Below the pieces are notes generated by a model that ran no database searches, was not told the DNA's origin, and worked only from the letters and a program-made list of their open reading frames with translations. DNA of 64,000 bases from positions 57,374 to 121,373 of the forward strand of contig JBAZYJ010000011.1 in the NCBI GenBank assembly GCA_041659385.1. Reading direction: 5' to 3'. This DNA comes from Sphingomonas sp. (GTDB taxonomy: Bacteria; Pseudomonadota; Alphaproteobacteria; Sphingomonadales; Sphingomonadaceae). This document shows positions 31,063 to 36,906 of this stretch, piece after piece (within the stretch, counting starts at the first letter, position 1; each line of letters opens with the position of its first letter). The translations under genes were made by a program, and so were the position numbers.

Positions 31063-31098
31063 GACGAGCGGCGCATTGACGAGCGGCGTTGCCGTCCT
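31063..31098. repeat. 15-bp tandem repeat (about 2.5 copies)
   Basis: GCGGCGCATTGACGA x2 followed by GCGGCG. Confidence 0.85.
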
Positions 31099-31120
31099 CG
31101 CCTCCGTCCCCCATATGTTC
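31089..31120 (+). promoter_or_regulatory. Putative uvrB promoter with overlapping degenerate LexA box
   Basis: TTGCCG-N17-CATATG; GTCC-N7-GTTC at 31106-31120. Confidence 0.45.
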
Positions 31121-31124
31121 CCTT

Positions 31125-33323
31125 ATGGCCATCCAGATTCGCACCACCCTTGACGAGCCGGACACCGGGCAGGCGTTTACGCCGCACCGGCCAGAGCGGC
31201 CACCCAAGGTTGAAGGGGGCAAGCCGCTCAGGATCGTCTCCGAATATGAACCCTCGGGCGATCAGCCGGGCGCGATCCGGGAATTGACCGAGGCGGCGCT
31301 GGCTGGCGAGCGCGATCAGGTACTGCTGGGCGTCACCGGCTCGGGCAAGACCTTCACCATGGCCAAGGTGATCGAGACGCTGCAGCGCCCGGCATTGGTA
31401 CTGGCGCCCAACAAGATCCTGGCGGCGCAGCTTTACGGCGAGTTCAAGAACTTCTTTCCCGACAATGCGGTCGAATATTTCGTCAGCTATTACGATTATT
31501 ACCAGCCCGAAGCCTATGTCGCGCGAACCGACACGTACATCGAGAAGGAAAGCAGCGTAAACGAAGCGATCGACCGGATGCGGCATTCGGCGACGCGATC
31601 ACTGCTGGAGCGGGACGATGTCATCATCGTCGCGTCGGTGTCGTGCCTGTACGGCATCGGTTCGGTCGAGACTTATTCGGCGATGATCTTTGACCTGAAG
31701 AAGAAGCAGGTGGTCGATCAGCGCGAGATCGTCCGCAAGCTCGTCGCGCTCCAGTACAAGCGCAACGACGCGGCGTTCCAGCGCGGCAATTTCCGCGTGA
31801 AGGGCGACAATCTGGAGATTTTCCCCTCGCATTATGAGGACACCGCCTGGCGCGTGTCGTTCTTCGGCGACGAGATCGAGGAAATCGTCGAGTTCGATCC
31901 GCTGACCGGCAAGAAGGTCGCCAGCCTCGATTATGTCCGCGTCTATGCCAACAGCCACTATGTGACGCCGGGGCCGACCCTGAAACAGGCGATGGAAGCG
32001 ATCAAGTTCGAACTGGCTGAACGGCTGAAGGAATTGAACAGCGAAGGCAAGCTGCTGGAGGCGCAGCGGCTGGAACAGCGCACCAATTTCGATCTGGAGA
32101 TGATCGCGGCGACCGGATCATGCGCGGGCATCGAAAACTACTCGCGCTTTTTGACCGGGCGCCTGCCGGGCGAGCCGCCGCCGACCCTGTTCGAATATCT
32201 GCCCGACAATGCGCTGCTGTTCGTCGATGAAAGCCACCAGACGATCGGCCAGATCAACGGCATGTCGCGCGGCGACCACAAGCGCAAGATCACGCTGGCG
32301 GAGTACGGCTTTCGCCTGCCCAGCGCGATCGACAACCGGCCGCTGCGCTTCAACGAATGGGACGCGATGCGGCCGCAGACGACTTATGTCTCGGCAACGC
32401 CCGGCAGTTGGGAAATGGAACAGACCGGCGGCGTCTTTGCCGAACAGGTGATCCGCCCCACCGGCCTCATTGATCCCCCGGTCGAAATCCGCCCGGTCGA
32501 GGAACAGGTGCAGGACCTGATCGTCGAATGCCGCAAGACGACCGCGATGGGATATCGCACGCTGGTCACCACGCTGACCAAGCGGATGGCCGAGGACCTG
32601 ACCGAATATATGCACGAGGCGGGGATCAAGTGCCGCTACATGCATTCGGATACCGAGACGCTGGAGCGCATCGAGCTGATCCGTGATCTGCGGATGGGCG
32701 TTTATGACGTGCTGATCGGCATCAACCTGCTGCGCGAAGGGCTGGACATCCCCGAATGCGGGCTGGTGGCGATATTGGATGCCGACAAGGAAGGGTTCCT
32801 GCGCTCCGAAACCTCGCTGATCCAGACCATCGGGCGCGCCGCGCGCAATGTGGAGGGGCGAGTGATCCTCTATGCCGACCGGATGACCGGCAGCATGGAG
32901 CGCGCGCTCAACGAAACCAGCCGCCGCCGCGAAAAGCAGGAAGCGTATAACGCCGAACACGGCATCACGCCCACCACGATCAAGCGCAACATCGGCGACA
33001 TCATCGCCCATGTCGCGTCGAAGGACCAGGTGACGGTGCCGATCGATGATGACGGTGGCCCCCAGCACATGGTCGGCCACAATCTGCGCGCGTATATCGA
33101 GGAACTGGAAAAGAAGATGCGCGCCGCCGCCGCTGATCTGGAATTCGAGGAAGCCGGGCGCCTGCGCGACGAAATCCGTGCGCTGGAAGCCGAGGAGCTT
33201 GGCCTGCCCGCCGATCAGCGCAAGGCGCCGGTGATGGGCCGCAGCAACGAAGGCAAGCCGGGCACGCGCAAGACGCGCTTCGGCAAGGTGCAGAAGAAAT
33301 TCGGCGGCAGCAGTCGACGTTAA
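31125..33323 (+). CDS. uvrB: Excinuclease ABC subunit B
   Basis: [42 protein letters not shown]-terminal UVR domain. Confidence 0.97.
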
Positions 33324-33369: not shown

Positions 33370-33409
33370 GGCATCGCTCCTGTCGGCCGGTATGAACCGC
33401 TTCAGGCAA

Positions 33410-33886
33410 TCACAAGCATTTGTCGTTGAGCGCGCTGATGAGCTTTTCGGCATCGGCGGCTTGCTTGGCCGCGTCCTTGCCTTCAAATTCCATCTGCACC
33501 GAATGGCCGCCGCCCGACACGATCAGGTTGGTGTTCACGGCCATCGCCTGCATTTTCTTCAGGTCAATCGACAGCTTGGCACCGCCTTCCAGCGTGACGT
33601 TGGTGGTGCAGGCGTCGGTGGTCGCGCCTTCCAGTTTTCTGGGCGAACTTTTGGGATCGGCCGTCATTGGCTTGGCAGTGACGAGCAATTGGTCGAGCGG
33701 CGTCCTGGCCGTGTCGGCCTTGGCGGGAGCAGGCGTTTCGGCGGGTGTCGGCGTTGCTGCTGGCGCTGCGGCCTGTTCGGGCGTCGCGGCCTGTTCCGGC
33801 GCTGGCGTGCTCTGCGCGTTGGCGGCGGCAAGAGCCAGTGGCGCGCCGATGATCAGGAACGCAACCGTGGCGAGCTTCTGAGTCAT
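33410..33886 (-). CDS. Secreted hypothetical protein with Ala/Pro-rich linker
   Basis: SD GGAGGGG, signal peptide, PEQAA repeats, two Cys. Confidence 0.75.
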   Translation of the reverse strand: MTQKLATVAFLIIGAPLALAAANAQSTPAPEQAATPEQAAAPAATPTPAETPAPAKADTARTPLDQLLVTAKPMTADPKSSPRKLEGATTDACTTNVTLEGGAKLSIDLKKMQAMAVNTNLIVSGGGHSVQMEFEGKDAAKQAADAEKLISALNDKCL

Positions 33887-33971
33887 TCGTTTTCCCCTCC
33901 TATATTATCCTCGCATCATATCGCGTTGTGCGGCCGACCGAAATGACTTCAATCAATGATTGTTACCCTGA

Positions 33972-34111: not shown

Positions 34112-34651
34112 ATGCGTCGATCGATTGTCCCCTTGTTGTTGCTGGCGCCGGTTGCGTCATGTGTGTCCAGCCCGCCGGTATCCGCCCCGGTCGTCGTGCC
34201 GCGAACCGCACCTGTCCCCGCACCAGCACCGCCGCCAACCCCGCCGGTGCTGGTGGGCGACTGGCCCGACTGGCCATTGACGCCGGGCACCTGGACGTAC
34301 CGTCAGGACAGCCGCGGCAGCGTCGCGCTGTTCGGCGTTGCGGGCGCGGATGCGGAGGTGACGCTGCGCTGCGATCGTAAGGCGGACATGGTCTATCTGT
34401 CGCGGCGTGGTGCCATCGCGGGCAATTCGTCGATGGTCGTCCGCACCACGGCGCTTGTCCGCACGCTGGCGGCGCGACCAACCGGCGGCGCCCCTTCGTT
34501 CATGGCCGTTGCCCTGGCGCCCGGCGACGCGGTGCTTGATGCGATGGGGTATAGCCGTGGGCGTTTTGTCATCGAACAAGCCGGCCTGCCTGTGCTGGTG
34601 GTGCCTGCCTGGGCGGAAATCCTGCGCGTCACCGAAGATTGCCGGTCGTAA
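34112..34651 (+). CDS. Hypothetical lipoprotein
   Basis: SD AAGGA, lipobox VASC, Pro-rich linker, GTWTY and EDCR motifs. Confidence 0.8.
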   Translation: MRRSIVPLLLLAPVASCVSSPPVSAPVVVPRTAPVPAPAPPPTPPVLVGDWPDWPLTPGTWTYRQDSRGSVALFGVAGADAEVTLRCDRKADMVYLSRRGAIAGNSSMVVRTTALVRTLAARPTGGAPSFMAVALAPGDAVLDAMGYSRGRFVIEQAGLPVLVVPAWAEILRVTEDCRS

Positions 34652-34850
34652 CGCGCACGCTACCGGACGTTGCGTGCGCGTGGCATGTCGATCACAAGAT
34701 GTAGGGGGTGCGGCCGTTCGAAGCGCAGACCTGCAGAATCGCGCAAATCAAAATAAATTACAAGTCTTGTAGTTGTGGCCGGGGTGATTCACACATGATG
34801 CGTGCCCAGGCAGGGTACGCCGCGTTCAACTAGCGAAAGGAGGTGATCCG

Positions 34851-34907
34851 ATGTCTCATGGTTCAGCAATGGGGTCGGTTCAGTTCGTTCGGGAGGCGCG
34901 TCGCTAA
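34851..34907 (+). CDS. 18-aa small protein MSHGSAMGSVQFVREARR
   Basis: ATG directly after GAAAGGAGGTGATCCG; TAA at 34905-34907. Confidence 0.65.
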   Translation: MSHGSAMGSVQFVREARR

Positions 34908-35019
34908 TTCCGCAGGGCCCTGGCGGGGAGATTTCCCTCCCAATCAACGTCCAGGGTTCACAGGAATGGCGGCCTGCATGGTCTCCCGGGCTGGAGCTTC
35001 CGGCCGCTGACCATGTTAG

Positions 35020-35061
35020 GAGGTTGCCGGGGCGGTGGGACACCCCCCGGCAGCCTCTTTT
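35020..35061 (+). terminator. Rho-independent terminator
   Basis: GAGGTTGCCGGGG / CCCCGGCAGCCTC stem followed by TTTT. Confidence 0.8.
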
Positions 35062-35151
35062 CATTTGTGCCGCGTTTTCATTTTTGTCGCGCGCGCAAGC
35101 GGCGTATCGCCTGGCGACGATGGCGATTTTATCCTTTTTCCGGCGACGCTG

Positions 35152-36906
35152 ATGGCAAGAACATTCTCCTTGCGTGCCGTGCCGACCGCGTTCGTCGCGC
35201 GGTTGCGCCGCAGGTTCCGGGCGAGCGAGGCATGGTTCATCCTGCTGGCGATTGTCGTGGGCGGGGTCGCCGGGCTGGCGACGGTTGCGCTGGGCGCGGT
35301 TGCGCGCACGCTCCAGCACTGGATGTTTCGCCTGCCGCATGACGCCAGCCTGAGCGGGCTGGCGACACTGGCACCGTGGCAATTGATGATGCTGCCGCTG
35401 GGCGGGCTGATCCTTGCCGGCTTCAGCTGGGCAACGCGCGCGCGCGTTCGCGCGCTGGTCGATGCGGTGGAAGCCAATGCGCTGCACGGCGGCCGCATGT
35501 CGATGGCGGATAGCGCGGTGATCGCGGGGCAGACCGCGATTTCCAATGGCTTTGGCGCATCGGTGGGGCTGGAGGCAGGCTATGCCCAGCTTGGTTCGGC
35601 CTTCGCCTCGCAGATTGGCGGGATGCTGAGGCTCAGGCGAGCCGACCTGCGCACCTTGGTCGGCGCGGGCGCGGGTGCGGGAATTGCGGCGGCCTTTGGC
35701 GCGCCACTTGCGGGGTGCTTTTATGCGTTTGAGATTGTCATCGGCGCGTACACCCCGTCCGCCATCGCGCCGATTGCGGCGGCGGCGTTGACGGCGGCAA
35801 GCGTCGCGCATCTGCTGGGCCAGACACCCTATGTCATCAGCACCACCGACTATCTGACCGTGCCGGGCGAACATTACCTGCTTTACGCGCTGCTGGGTGC
35901 GGTGTGCGGGGTGCTGGGCATCGTGCTGATGCGGCTGGTCGCGCTGGCGGAGACCGCCAGCCGTGCCATGCGGCTGCCCGCGGGCGCGCGGCCGGTGGTG
36001 GGGGGCCTGTTGCTGGTGCCCATCGCCGCGCTGTCACCCCAGGTGCTCTCCTCAGGACATGGCGCACTGCACATGGATTTGGCGGCGGGCTATTCGCTCA
36101 GCTTCATCGCGGCGATGCTGCTGGCCAAATGCGCGGCGTCGGTGGTGTCGCTTGGCTTTGGCTTCCGCGGCGGCCTGTTTTTCGCGTCGTTGTTCATCGG
36201 CACGCTGGTCGGGCACATCTTTGCCGGGGTGGTGGGGTTGAGCGCGGGGTATATGATCGTCGCCTCCAACCAGGCAGCGGTGGTGGGCATGGCGGCGCTG
36301 GCGGTGGCGATCATCGGCGGGCCGATGACCATGGCGATGCTGGTGCTGGAAGCGACGCGCGATTTCTTCCTGACCGGCGCCGTCATCACCGCATCGCTGG
36401 TTGCCAGCACCATCGTGCGGGAAGGGTTCGGCTATTCCTTCTCGACCTGGCGGCTGCACCTGCGGGGAGAGACGATCAAAAGCGCGCGCGATATCGGCTG
36501 GGCACGTTCGTTAACCGCGGGCCGGATGATGCGGCCAACGCAGCCGCTGCCCGACAGCACGCCGATCGTCGAATTTCGCCGCCAATTCCCGCTGGGCGCG
36601 GCCAGCCGGGTCGTGCTGGTCGATCCCGATGGCCATTATGCGGGCATCGTAGCACCCGCTGATGCCTGGGCGGAAAACCGGGATGCCGCCGGGTCAATCG
36701 GCAGCATCGCCACGCACCACGCCCCGCCGCTGGCCATGGGGGAGGGCATCGATGCGATCATGGCGCGGTTCGATATCGATCAGGTCGACGAACTTGCCGT
36801 GATCGATGCGAAGGGCGCGGTGCTGGGCGTGGTGTCGGAAAAGTTCGCCCGTCGCCGCTATGCCGAGGAAATGGAAAAGGCGCAGCGCGGCCTGTTCGCC
36901 GATTGA
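35152..36906 (+). CDS. ClC family chloride channel protein with C-terminal CBS domains
   Basis: ASVGLEAG, GIAAAFGAPLAG, GFRGGLFF, CBS pair. Confidence 0.88.
   Translation: MARTFSLRAVPTAFVARLRRRFRASEAWFILLAIVVGGVAGLATVALGAVARTLQHWMFRLPHDASLSGLATLAPWQLMMLPLGGLILAGFSWATRARVRALVDAVEANALHGGRMSMADSAVIAGQTAISNGFGASVGLEAGYAQLGSAFASQIGGMLRLRRADLRTLVGAGAGAGIAAAFGAPLAGCFYAFEIVIGAYTPSAIAPIAAAALTAASVAHLLGQTPYVISTTDYLTVPGEHYLLYALLGAVCGVLGIVLMRLVALAETASRAMRLPAGARPVVGGLLLVPIAALSPQVLSSGHGALHMDLAAGYSLSFIAAMLLAKCAASVVSLGFGFRGGLFFASLFIGTLVGHIFAGVVGLSAGYMIVASNQAAVVGMAALAVAIIGGPMTMAMLVLEATRDFFLTGAVITASLVASTIVREGFGYSFSTWRLHLRGETIKSARDIGWARSLTAGRMMRPTQPLPDSTPIVEFRRQFPLGAASRVVLVDPDGHYAGIVAPADAWAENRDAAGSIGSIATHHAPPLAMGEGIDAIMARFDIDQVDELAVIDAKGAVLGVVSEKFARRRYAEEMEKAQRGLFAD

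Follow-up and report, generated by a model that had tools for sequence, protein, structure and literature searches.

A small RNA gene of the Sphingomonadaceae, probably of the CC2171/rre mini-mRNA kind, with a reading frame predicted to form one strand of a conserved hairpin

Organisation of the locus

The small RNA locus studied here occupies approximately positions 34800-35061 on the + strand of the window (the whole 64-kb stretch of Sphingomonas sp. DNA that was analysed) and, read directly from the sequence, is around 260 nt long. Between uvrB (31089-33323) and the RNA there are two small frames, 33392-33946 and 34112-34651, for neither of which was a Pfam family found. The second encodes 179 aa with a lipoprotein-like N-terminus and a Pro-rich linker, and is syntenic with the RNA across the genus; in some relatives a weak second match to it (approximately 27-30% identity) lies between the main match and the RNA. 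The downstream gene (35152-36906) encodes a ClC channel (Voltage_CLC), and the terminator of the RNA lies 90 nt before its start. There are no tRNA or tmRNA genes in the 64-kb window, hence the element is not a two-piece tmRNA.

For comparison we aligned 24 sequences from the genus (alignment A1) and 54 from other genera of the family (alignment A2), and ran RNAalifold on both. At its 5' end the RNA carries a hairpin, GCGTGCCC/GGGTACGC (34800-34820), in which five of the six pairs are changed on both sides within the genus and 91% of cells are paired. There follow a single-stranded TTCAACTAGC leader (34825-34834), whose CAAC motif is nearly invariant in A1, and an extended Shine-Dalgarno (SD) sequence (34835-34850) with 15 Watson-Crick pairs and one G-U pair to the 16S 3' tail, which is invariant in the 24 genus and 54 family sequences. 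Its 15-mer, GAAAGGAGGTGATCC, spans 34835-34849, and an ATG at 34851 opens an 18-codon frame, MSHGSAMGSVQFVREARR, that runs with its TAA stop (34905-34907) from 34851 to 34907.

The codons of the frame, from the third to the last, are predicted to make up the 5' strand of a long imperfect helix (34857-34905; 38 pairs in the genus alignment). A variable apical domain of covarying nested stems (34908-34967), with a GGGAG/CTCCC hairpin (34926-34941) and AAUCAACG (34942-34949), separates it from the 3' strand of the same helix (34968-35015), in which CCGCTGACCATG is invariant in the 54 family sequences and which ends in the invariant GCUGACCAUG (35006-35015). The RNA closes with an intrinsic terminator (35019-35061) made up of a 17-bp stem (35019-35058) and the U-tract UUUUCAUUU; both-sided changes are seen at 8 of 17 pairs in the genus and 10 of 13 in the family. 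The 5' hairpin, the 15-mer, the ATG with its 18-residue frame and the strong terminator had all been pointed out in a preliminary description made from the sequence, and each is there as described, with covariation now added for the hairpin and the terminator.

The extended Shine-Dalgarno sequence

The 15-mer occurs once in the 3.3-Mb assembly, against a chance expectation of approximately 0.006, and its reversed control occurs nowhere in that assembly. The predicted duplex with the 16S 3' tail has an energy of -30.1 kcal/mol, compared with -9.2 kcal/mol for AGGAGG alone. Neither the tail nor the conserved 1492-region motif of the genome's own 16S 3' end is present in the assembly, and the complementarity and its energy therefore rest on the published alphaproteobacterial tail; the sphingomonad 16S 3' end expected by our model would read ...GGAUCACCUCCUUUC(U). 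The ATG at 34851 lies outside the duplex, starting one base after the 15-mer, with position 34850 forming the G-U wobble. In the predicted ensemble the SD is around 50% unpaired as against 26% for codon 3 to the end of the frame. A fragment of 16S rRNA was also considered and ruled out, as it had been from the outset, because the 15-mer has the antisense orientation with respect to the tail, beyond which the similarity does not extend.

Conservation and distribution

Searching the Sphingomonadales for the extended SD together with the frame, a comparison suggested in the preliminary description, showed the combination to be conserved. By BLASTN the locus is found in 23 of 24 genomes of the same genus at 74-88% identity. 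Using the core motif GGAGGTGATC-NNN-TGTCTCAT for wider counts, we found it in 137 of the 174 genomes sampled from the window's GTDB family, with a single copy in nearly all cases; the nine remaining families of the order, represented by 126 genomes, had none. Around 20 of 398 other alphaproteobacterial genomes, evenly sampled across the class, also carry the motif, almost all of them with GATCCAGTG, which is the CC2171 form with the same layout. An exact 30-mer of the window's form is present in at least 120 named Sphingomonadales species, the genera among the matches listed including Sphingomonas, Sphingobium, Novosphingobium, Sphingomicrobium, Allosphingosinicella, Erythrobacter, Porphyrobacter, Altererythrobacter, Qipengyuania and Citromicrobium. 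Most of the Sphingomonadaceae and Erythrobacteraceae sampled have one copy per genome.

Outside the sphingomonads, a start of the form SD-ATG-TCT-CAT-GG heads frames of 58-59 residues for secreted or lipoprotein-like products, MSHGA...C... (L099/G378 and L121/G677). Membership of the RNA family thus cannot be read from the motif alone.

Relationship to CC2171, rreB and rreR

An Rfam scan of the 64-kb window at gathering thresholds returned no family. The best Rfam match at the locus is RF01867 (CC2171), at 28.7 bits (E = 3e-4; the gathering score is 75), and it includes a near-perfect match to the 5' consensus of that family, CAAC..GAAAGGAGGUGAUCC.(G/A)UGUCUCAU. The layout is shared as well, namely a CAAC leader, an extended SD, a start codon, UCU CAU and a helix that joins the first codons (codons 3-5) to the segment before a GAAGGG-type terminator, all in a stand-alone gene with a tiny frame; CAACAA upstream of the SD is seen in CC2171-type copies across the class. 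A second weak match to RF01867 in the genome (contig 24, 24.7 bits) was rejected; it lacks an extended SD and ends in a terminator-like hairpin.

Two forms can be distinguished. Type A, the form in the window, begins AUG UCU CAU GGU UCA GC..., encodes MSHGS... (18 residues in the window) and has GCUGACCAUG before the terminator, whereas type B, CC2171 proper, begins (G/A)UG UCU CAU UGU C..., encodes (V/M)SHCH... with 20-26 residues and has GACAAUG in the equivalent position. The start codon of the window RNA lies outside a duplex of 15 pairs and one G-U pair, in contrast to the GUG start and 17 pairs of CC2171, and in the window's genus an added apical domain of around 60 nt brings the RNA to approximately 260 nt.

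Against RF01867 the type A copies of relatives score 29-35 bits and sphingomonad type B copies 66-88 bits, four of the latter having been scored (G018, G226, G300 and G103), one of which lies above the gathering score. Type A is therefore a diverged relative of RF01867 and not a member by the Rfam criterion. A few sphingomonads, for example G018 and G226, carry both types in the same genome, and hence the two are paralogous there. Type B loci were seen in some Sphingomonadaceae (L026 in G018, L084 in G226, L060 in G300, L062 in G103, and also L058 and L059). The full 17-nt version with GATCCAG is found in three sphingomonad genomes, and the two such loci that were read are type B and not variants of the type A locus.

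The Rfam family CC2171 corresponds to the 'rre' that Hahn et al. describe from Caulobacterales (RNA Biol 2016/17, PMC5711450). CC2171 itself came from a screen for Caulobacter crescentus sRNAs and was validated by Northern blot in Methylorubrum extorquens (bioRxiv 10.1101/2022.01.24.477521). Genes of the rre kind are reported from Caulobacterales, Rhizobiales, Rhodobacterales (rreR, 18 codons) and Rhodospirillales, with no mention of Sphingomonadales and no peptide similarity between the types (PMC5711450). Among them, rreB of the Bradyrhizobiaceae is 165 nt long with 14 codons and a 17-nt complement of the 16S tail; it co-sediments with 30S subunits, is weakly translated because of its extended SD, and has a stability that depends on the start codon (PMC5711450).

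Like rreB, the window RNA has the features of a small stand-alone mRNA with a promoter and a terminator of its own, an SD extended over the free 16S 3' tail, a frame of fewer than 20 codons and conservation at the family level. It differs in its length (around 260 nt), its 18 codons and its ATG, the complement in rreB taking in the G of a GTG start. In rre genes the last paired base is that G, whereas here the ATG begins one base after the 15-mer; an ATG start is the exception among rre genes, found in Azospirillum (PMC5711450). The complementarity amounts to 15 Watson-Crick pairs and one wobble with the published alphaproteobacterial tail, as compared with the at least 16 nt used as a search criterion by Hahn et al. 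Furthermore, part of the rreB SD is predicted to lie in a hairpin, whereas in the window RNA it is the frame that is predicted to be sequestered, with the SD approximately half accessible. The 30S co-sedimentation, weak translation and start-codon-dependent stability belong to the biochemistry of rreB, and tight 30S binding and poor translation of the window RNA would follow by analogy. With rreR of the Rhodobacter/Roseobacter clade (PMC5711450) it shares an 18-codon frame directly behind an extended SD and clade-wide presence; unlike it, rreR has a GTG start inside the duplex and a different peptide, and it belongs to a different order.

The initial proposal of a small mRNA or sRNA of the rreB/rreR kind is thus supported, as a stand-alone gene, given the 5' motif and layout in common with CC2171 together with the RNA's own terminator and promoter-like block. 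The sphingomonad form is missed by the Rfam model, and no description of a sphingomonad example was found in the literature searched, in agreement with the earlier remark that no characterised one was known.

Secondary structure and covariation

The predicted fold of positions 34790-35065, of which the terminator is the last stem, has an energy of -146.4 kcal/mol compared with -112.6 +/- 4.8 kcal/mol for shuffled sequences (z = -7.0). RNAalifold gave the same plan for A1 and A2. The long helix leaves out the SD, the AUG and codon 2; it starts at codon 3, and the remainder of the frame up to its last codon makes up the 5' strand of an imperfect hairpin, whose 3' strand finishes with the invariant GCUGACCAUG immediately before the terminator. 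The paired segments are 34857-34867 of the frame with 35006-35015 of the 3' strand, 34871-34878 with 35000-35005, 34882-34897 with 34981-34998 and 34900-34905 with 34968-34973, with paired fractions, helix by helix, of 100%, 100%, 98.4% and 88.9% in the genus alignment. What had been described as an elaborate 3' domain is consequently better read, as judged by RNAalifold and pair counts, as one half of a hairpin, its 3' strand, with the frame itself supplying the other half.

The covariation analysis proposed in the preliminary description was carried out using RNAalifold and pair counts, and gave values far above slid controls and shuffles in both alignments. In A2 (family) 93.0% of cells are paired, compared with 32-47% in the slid controls, covariation is 0.369 against at most 0.119, and 22 pairs are changed on both sides. 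The corresponding values for A1 (genus) are 94.9% against 39-52%, 0.281 against at most 0.111, and 26 pairs. Not one of 500 shuffles matched the observed covariation in either A2 or A1. Within the genus, covariation supports the 5' hairpin and the terminator as well as, in the apical domain, the nested stems and the GGGAG/CTCCC hairpin. In the long helix, pair 159:261 of the genus alignment is GC in 12 sequences and UA in 9.

Among type A copies both closing helices do not vary, apart from changes that are wobble-compatible (C to U opposite G) or that fall at a bulged base, together with a double change in one copy (GGUUGG with CCAGCC). Because of this invariance, support for the closing helices comes from the wobble-compatible changes and from the comparison with type B. 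Between the types the change is compensatory: CAUGGU.C/GACCAUG in type A corresponds to CAUUGUC/GACAAUG in type B and to CAUUGCC/GGCAAUG in one type B copy, a G-C pair in A becoming U-A in B.

In the window sequence GCUGACCAUG (35006-35015) is predicted to pair with CAUGGUUCAGC of the frame (34857-34867) with a probability of 0.95, and this frame segment is its only partner that is conserved across the family. The preliminary description had instead paired GACCATG with a second, nearby copy of CATGGTC, which is missing in most genera. Given the predicted frame pairing and this absence, the local CATGGTC/GACCATG stem probably competes with the frame pairing and loses, and is probably not the native pairing. 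Of the other stems that had been proposed, GGGAG/CTCCC and the nested apical stems stand, as they covary in the genus.

Most other genera have a much simpler RNA of around 185 nt. The apical addition of around 60 nt, with a GGGGGG-UAUCC-UCCCCC hairpin and AAUCAACG, is found across the window's genus, whereas other genera show insertions there or lack it, and a few have long apical domains of their own.

Selection on the reading frame

We then compared the reading frames of type A in 89 distinct copies. In 74 of them the frame meets its first stop at codon 19 and in 12 at codon 20, with all three stop codons in use (TAA 58, TGA 22 and TAG 9), whereas in the other two frames the first stop is scattered from codon 5 to beyond codon 78. 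From this contrast we conclude that the length of the frame is under selection. Codons 1-6 are invariant at all three positions, codons 3-6 lying inside the closing helix. Averaged over the columns of codons 7-18, entropy is 1.09 at the first position, 1.12 at the second and 0.82 at the third, so that there is no wobble excess. The check for coding selection that had been suggested therefore has a divided outcome, in that the frame length is fixed (86 of 89 copies) and third-position excess is absent from codons 7-18.

A purely non-coding RNA acting in trans would account for some of these observations. The 15-mer or the invariant 3' strand would then be a seed for pairing with other RNAs, or with 16S rRNA only, and the frame would never be translated. 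The entropy values of codons 7-18 are in keeping with this, as is the coincidence of nucleotide-level conservation with the paired segments, and residues are altered where paired bases have changed together, as at UAU/AUU (Tyr/Ile), which is matched by changes in the 3' strand. However, an AUG or GUG stands at the ideal spacing from GGAGG in every copy, the stop position is fixed as described, and rreB is translated, if weakly (PMC5711450). Moreover, genomic complements of the invariant 3' strand occur at chance level only: a search for trans targets gave 5 exact and approximately 65 one-mismatch sites, compared with 24 in the reversed control, and no pattern among them. We therefore regard a wholly untranslated RNA as unlikely.

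The opposite proposal, that this is an ordinary small-protein gene whose product is the 18-residue MSHGS... peptide and whose long SD serves strong translation, draws on the conserved length of the frame, on the invariant N-terminus MSHGS(A/V), on Ser9, Val10 and a basic C-terminus that are mostly kept, and on the use of all four Val codons at codon 10. The invariant N-terminal codons are, however, the nucleotides of the closing helix and show no synonymous variation, and codons 11-18 differ widely between genera in ways that preserve RNA pairing rather than residue type. In rreB the extended SD lowers translation rather than raising it (PMC5711450), and a helix from +7 would be expected to hinder initiation. 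An ordinary small-protein gene thus appears quite unlikely. A type I toxin was also considered and ruled out, the peptide being hydrophilic and basic and not hydrophobic. Read most simply, the alignments suggest that the frame is used by ribosomes, and that conservation would concern the RNA and how far it is translated rather than most of the peptide.

Promoter-like elements and expression

Upstream of the RNA lies the perfect 13-nt palindrome TACAAGTCTTGTA (34759-34771, + strand; columns 10-22 of A1). Its CTTG is invariant and its ACAAG nearly so among the 24 genus members, and (T/A)CAAGnCTTG(T/A) is found upstream of the RNA in other genera. Approximately 17 nt after the CTTG the A1 consensus has GATTCACAT, type B copies having TCATATTG at the equivalent place; in the window this conserved block, GATTCACAC (34786-34796, + strand), contains CA(C/T)AT(T) and a GANTC site. 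We propose the palindrome and the block as putative -35 and -10 elements, on the basis of their conservation and spacing. A scan for consensus promoters and terminators found nothing at the locus, the blocks being recognised only by comparison with relatives; the simple terminator scan was probably empty because the loop is longer than the 3-8 nt that it allowed.

A GATTC sequence (GANTC, CcrM-type) lies inside the -10-like element. Across relatives its middle base is T, C or A, GA.TC being kept in many of them though not all. A genome-wide regulon search found the palindrome, ACAAGNCTTGT, at this site only. Judging from these motifs, the promoter-like block could hold an operator, could make transcription methylation-sensitive, or both.

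In an aquifer metatranscriptome, 71% of the words sampled from 34795-35062 were present and none from the flanks. Contigs from two such RNA runs cover only approximately 34802-35089 at low depth, with zero depth on both flanking genes, and in a third RNA run a 400-nt contig with a depth of 30 covers a 91%-identical relative. The RNA contigs reach from 18 to approximately 110 nt upstream of the inferred start and around 28 nt past the U-tract and terminator. Because low-depth contigs overrun the start and terminator in this way, there may be some DNA carry-over in the RNA libraries, and the ends of the transcript are only inferred. The transcript proposed in the preliminary description is thus matched by RNA-library contigs confined to the locus.

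These data also bear on whether the element might act in cis within the transcript of a neighbouring gene, as a leader or attenuator of ClC or as a fragment released by processing from the 3' UTR of the lipoprotein-like gene upstream. The closeness of the ClC start to the terminator, the genus-wide synteny of the 179-aa frame and the RNA contigs that extend 50-110 nt upstream of the inferred start would all fit such an arrangement. The ClC gene, however, lies downstream of the element in none of the relatives examined, the promoter-like block (CTTG approximately 17 nt before CA(C/T)AT) is conserved directly upstream despite different neighbours, and flank depth in the metatranscriptomes is zero. 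A cis-acting role is for these reasons very unlikely. As to a leader of the fluoride-riboswitch type in particular, this was rejected, there being no Rfam match and no ClC gene downstream in relatives. The evidence argues instead for a stand-alone transcript, as in rre genes, with a covarying terminator, a promoter-like block, a downstream gene that is not syntenic and locus-confined RNA contigs.

A model for the sphingomonad RNA

We consider it likely that the locus is an independent small RNA gene, a sphingomonad-specific form of the 'rre'/CC2171 kind of alphaproteobacterial mini-mRNA, with its frame held in a hairpin and, by analogy, with docking of the ribosome. In the proposed layout a short 5' hairpin and a CAAC leader would precede a 15-nt complement (plus one G-U) of the whole single-stranded 16S 3' tail, the AUG would come one base later, and the first two codons alone would be free, with the helix extending from codon 3 to the stop. 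By analogy with rreB, a free 30S subunit would dock very tightly through the extended SD:anti-SD duplex. Initiation and elongation would be kept low, we propose, because this duplex stops just short of the start codon and a GC-rich helix sets in at +7. Occasional translation would unzip the whole hairpin up to its apex, the site of the stop codon. The main targets of selection would then be the RNA and the frame length, and not the sequence of the C-terminal two thirds of the peptide.

A more speculative version, which we hold to be doubtful, is a translation-gated switch that reports free 30S. Here the giant SD would hold the 30S subunit, and translation would expose the invariant 3' strand CCGCUGACCAUG for a second activity, which might be pairing with another RNA, cleavage or protection of the 16S tail; it would be the length of the frame, and not the peptide, that is maintained. 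If this were true, the members of the whole rre/CC2171 class would be riboregulators that sense ribosomes and not genes for small proteins.

Mini-mRNAs of the rre/CC2171 class have a wide distribution and are evidently subject to strong selection, and no earlier comparison has shown the class as clearly as the many diverged sphingomonad copies do. They identify an invariant core of extended SD, start codon and a helix beginning at codon 3, with the whole frame as one strand of a covarying hairpin and with its length conserved while most of the peptide is not. Whether the peptide matters, or the RNA and the act of translation, is now directly testable in Sphingomonas, Novosphingobium or Zymomonas-like hosts.

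Two further elements of the RNA may be mentioned. A second AGGAGG is present in the 5' arm of the terminator (35018-35023), and an anti-SD-like CCCUCCC in the genus-specific hairpin at 34926-34941; either could offer an alternative pairing with the SD or the ribosome. In several relatives (L031, L070 and L083) the type A terminator hairpin is tandemly repeated two to three times.
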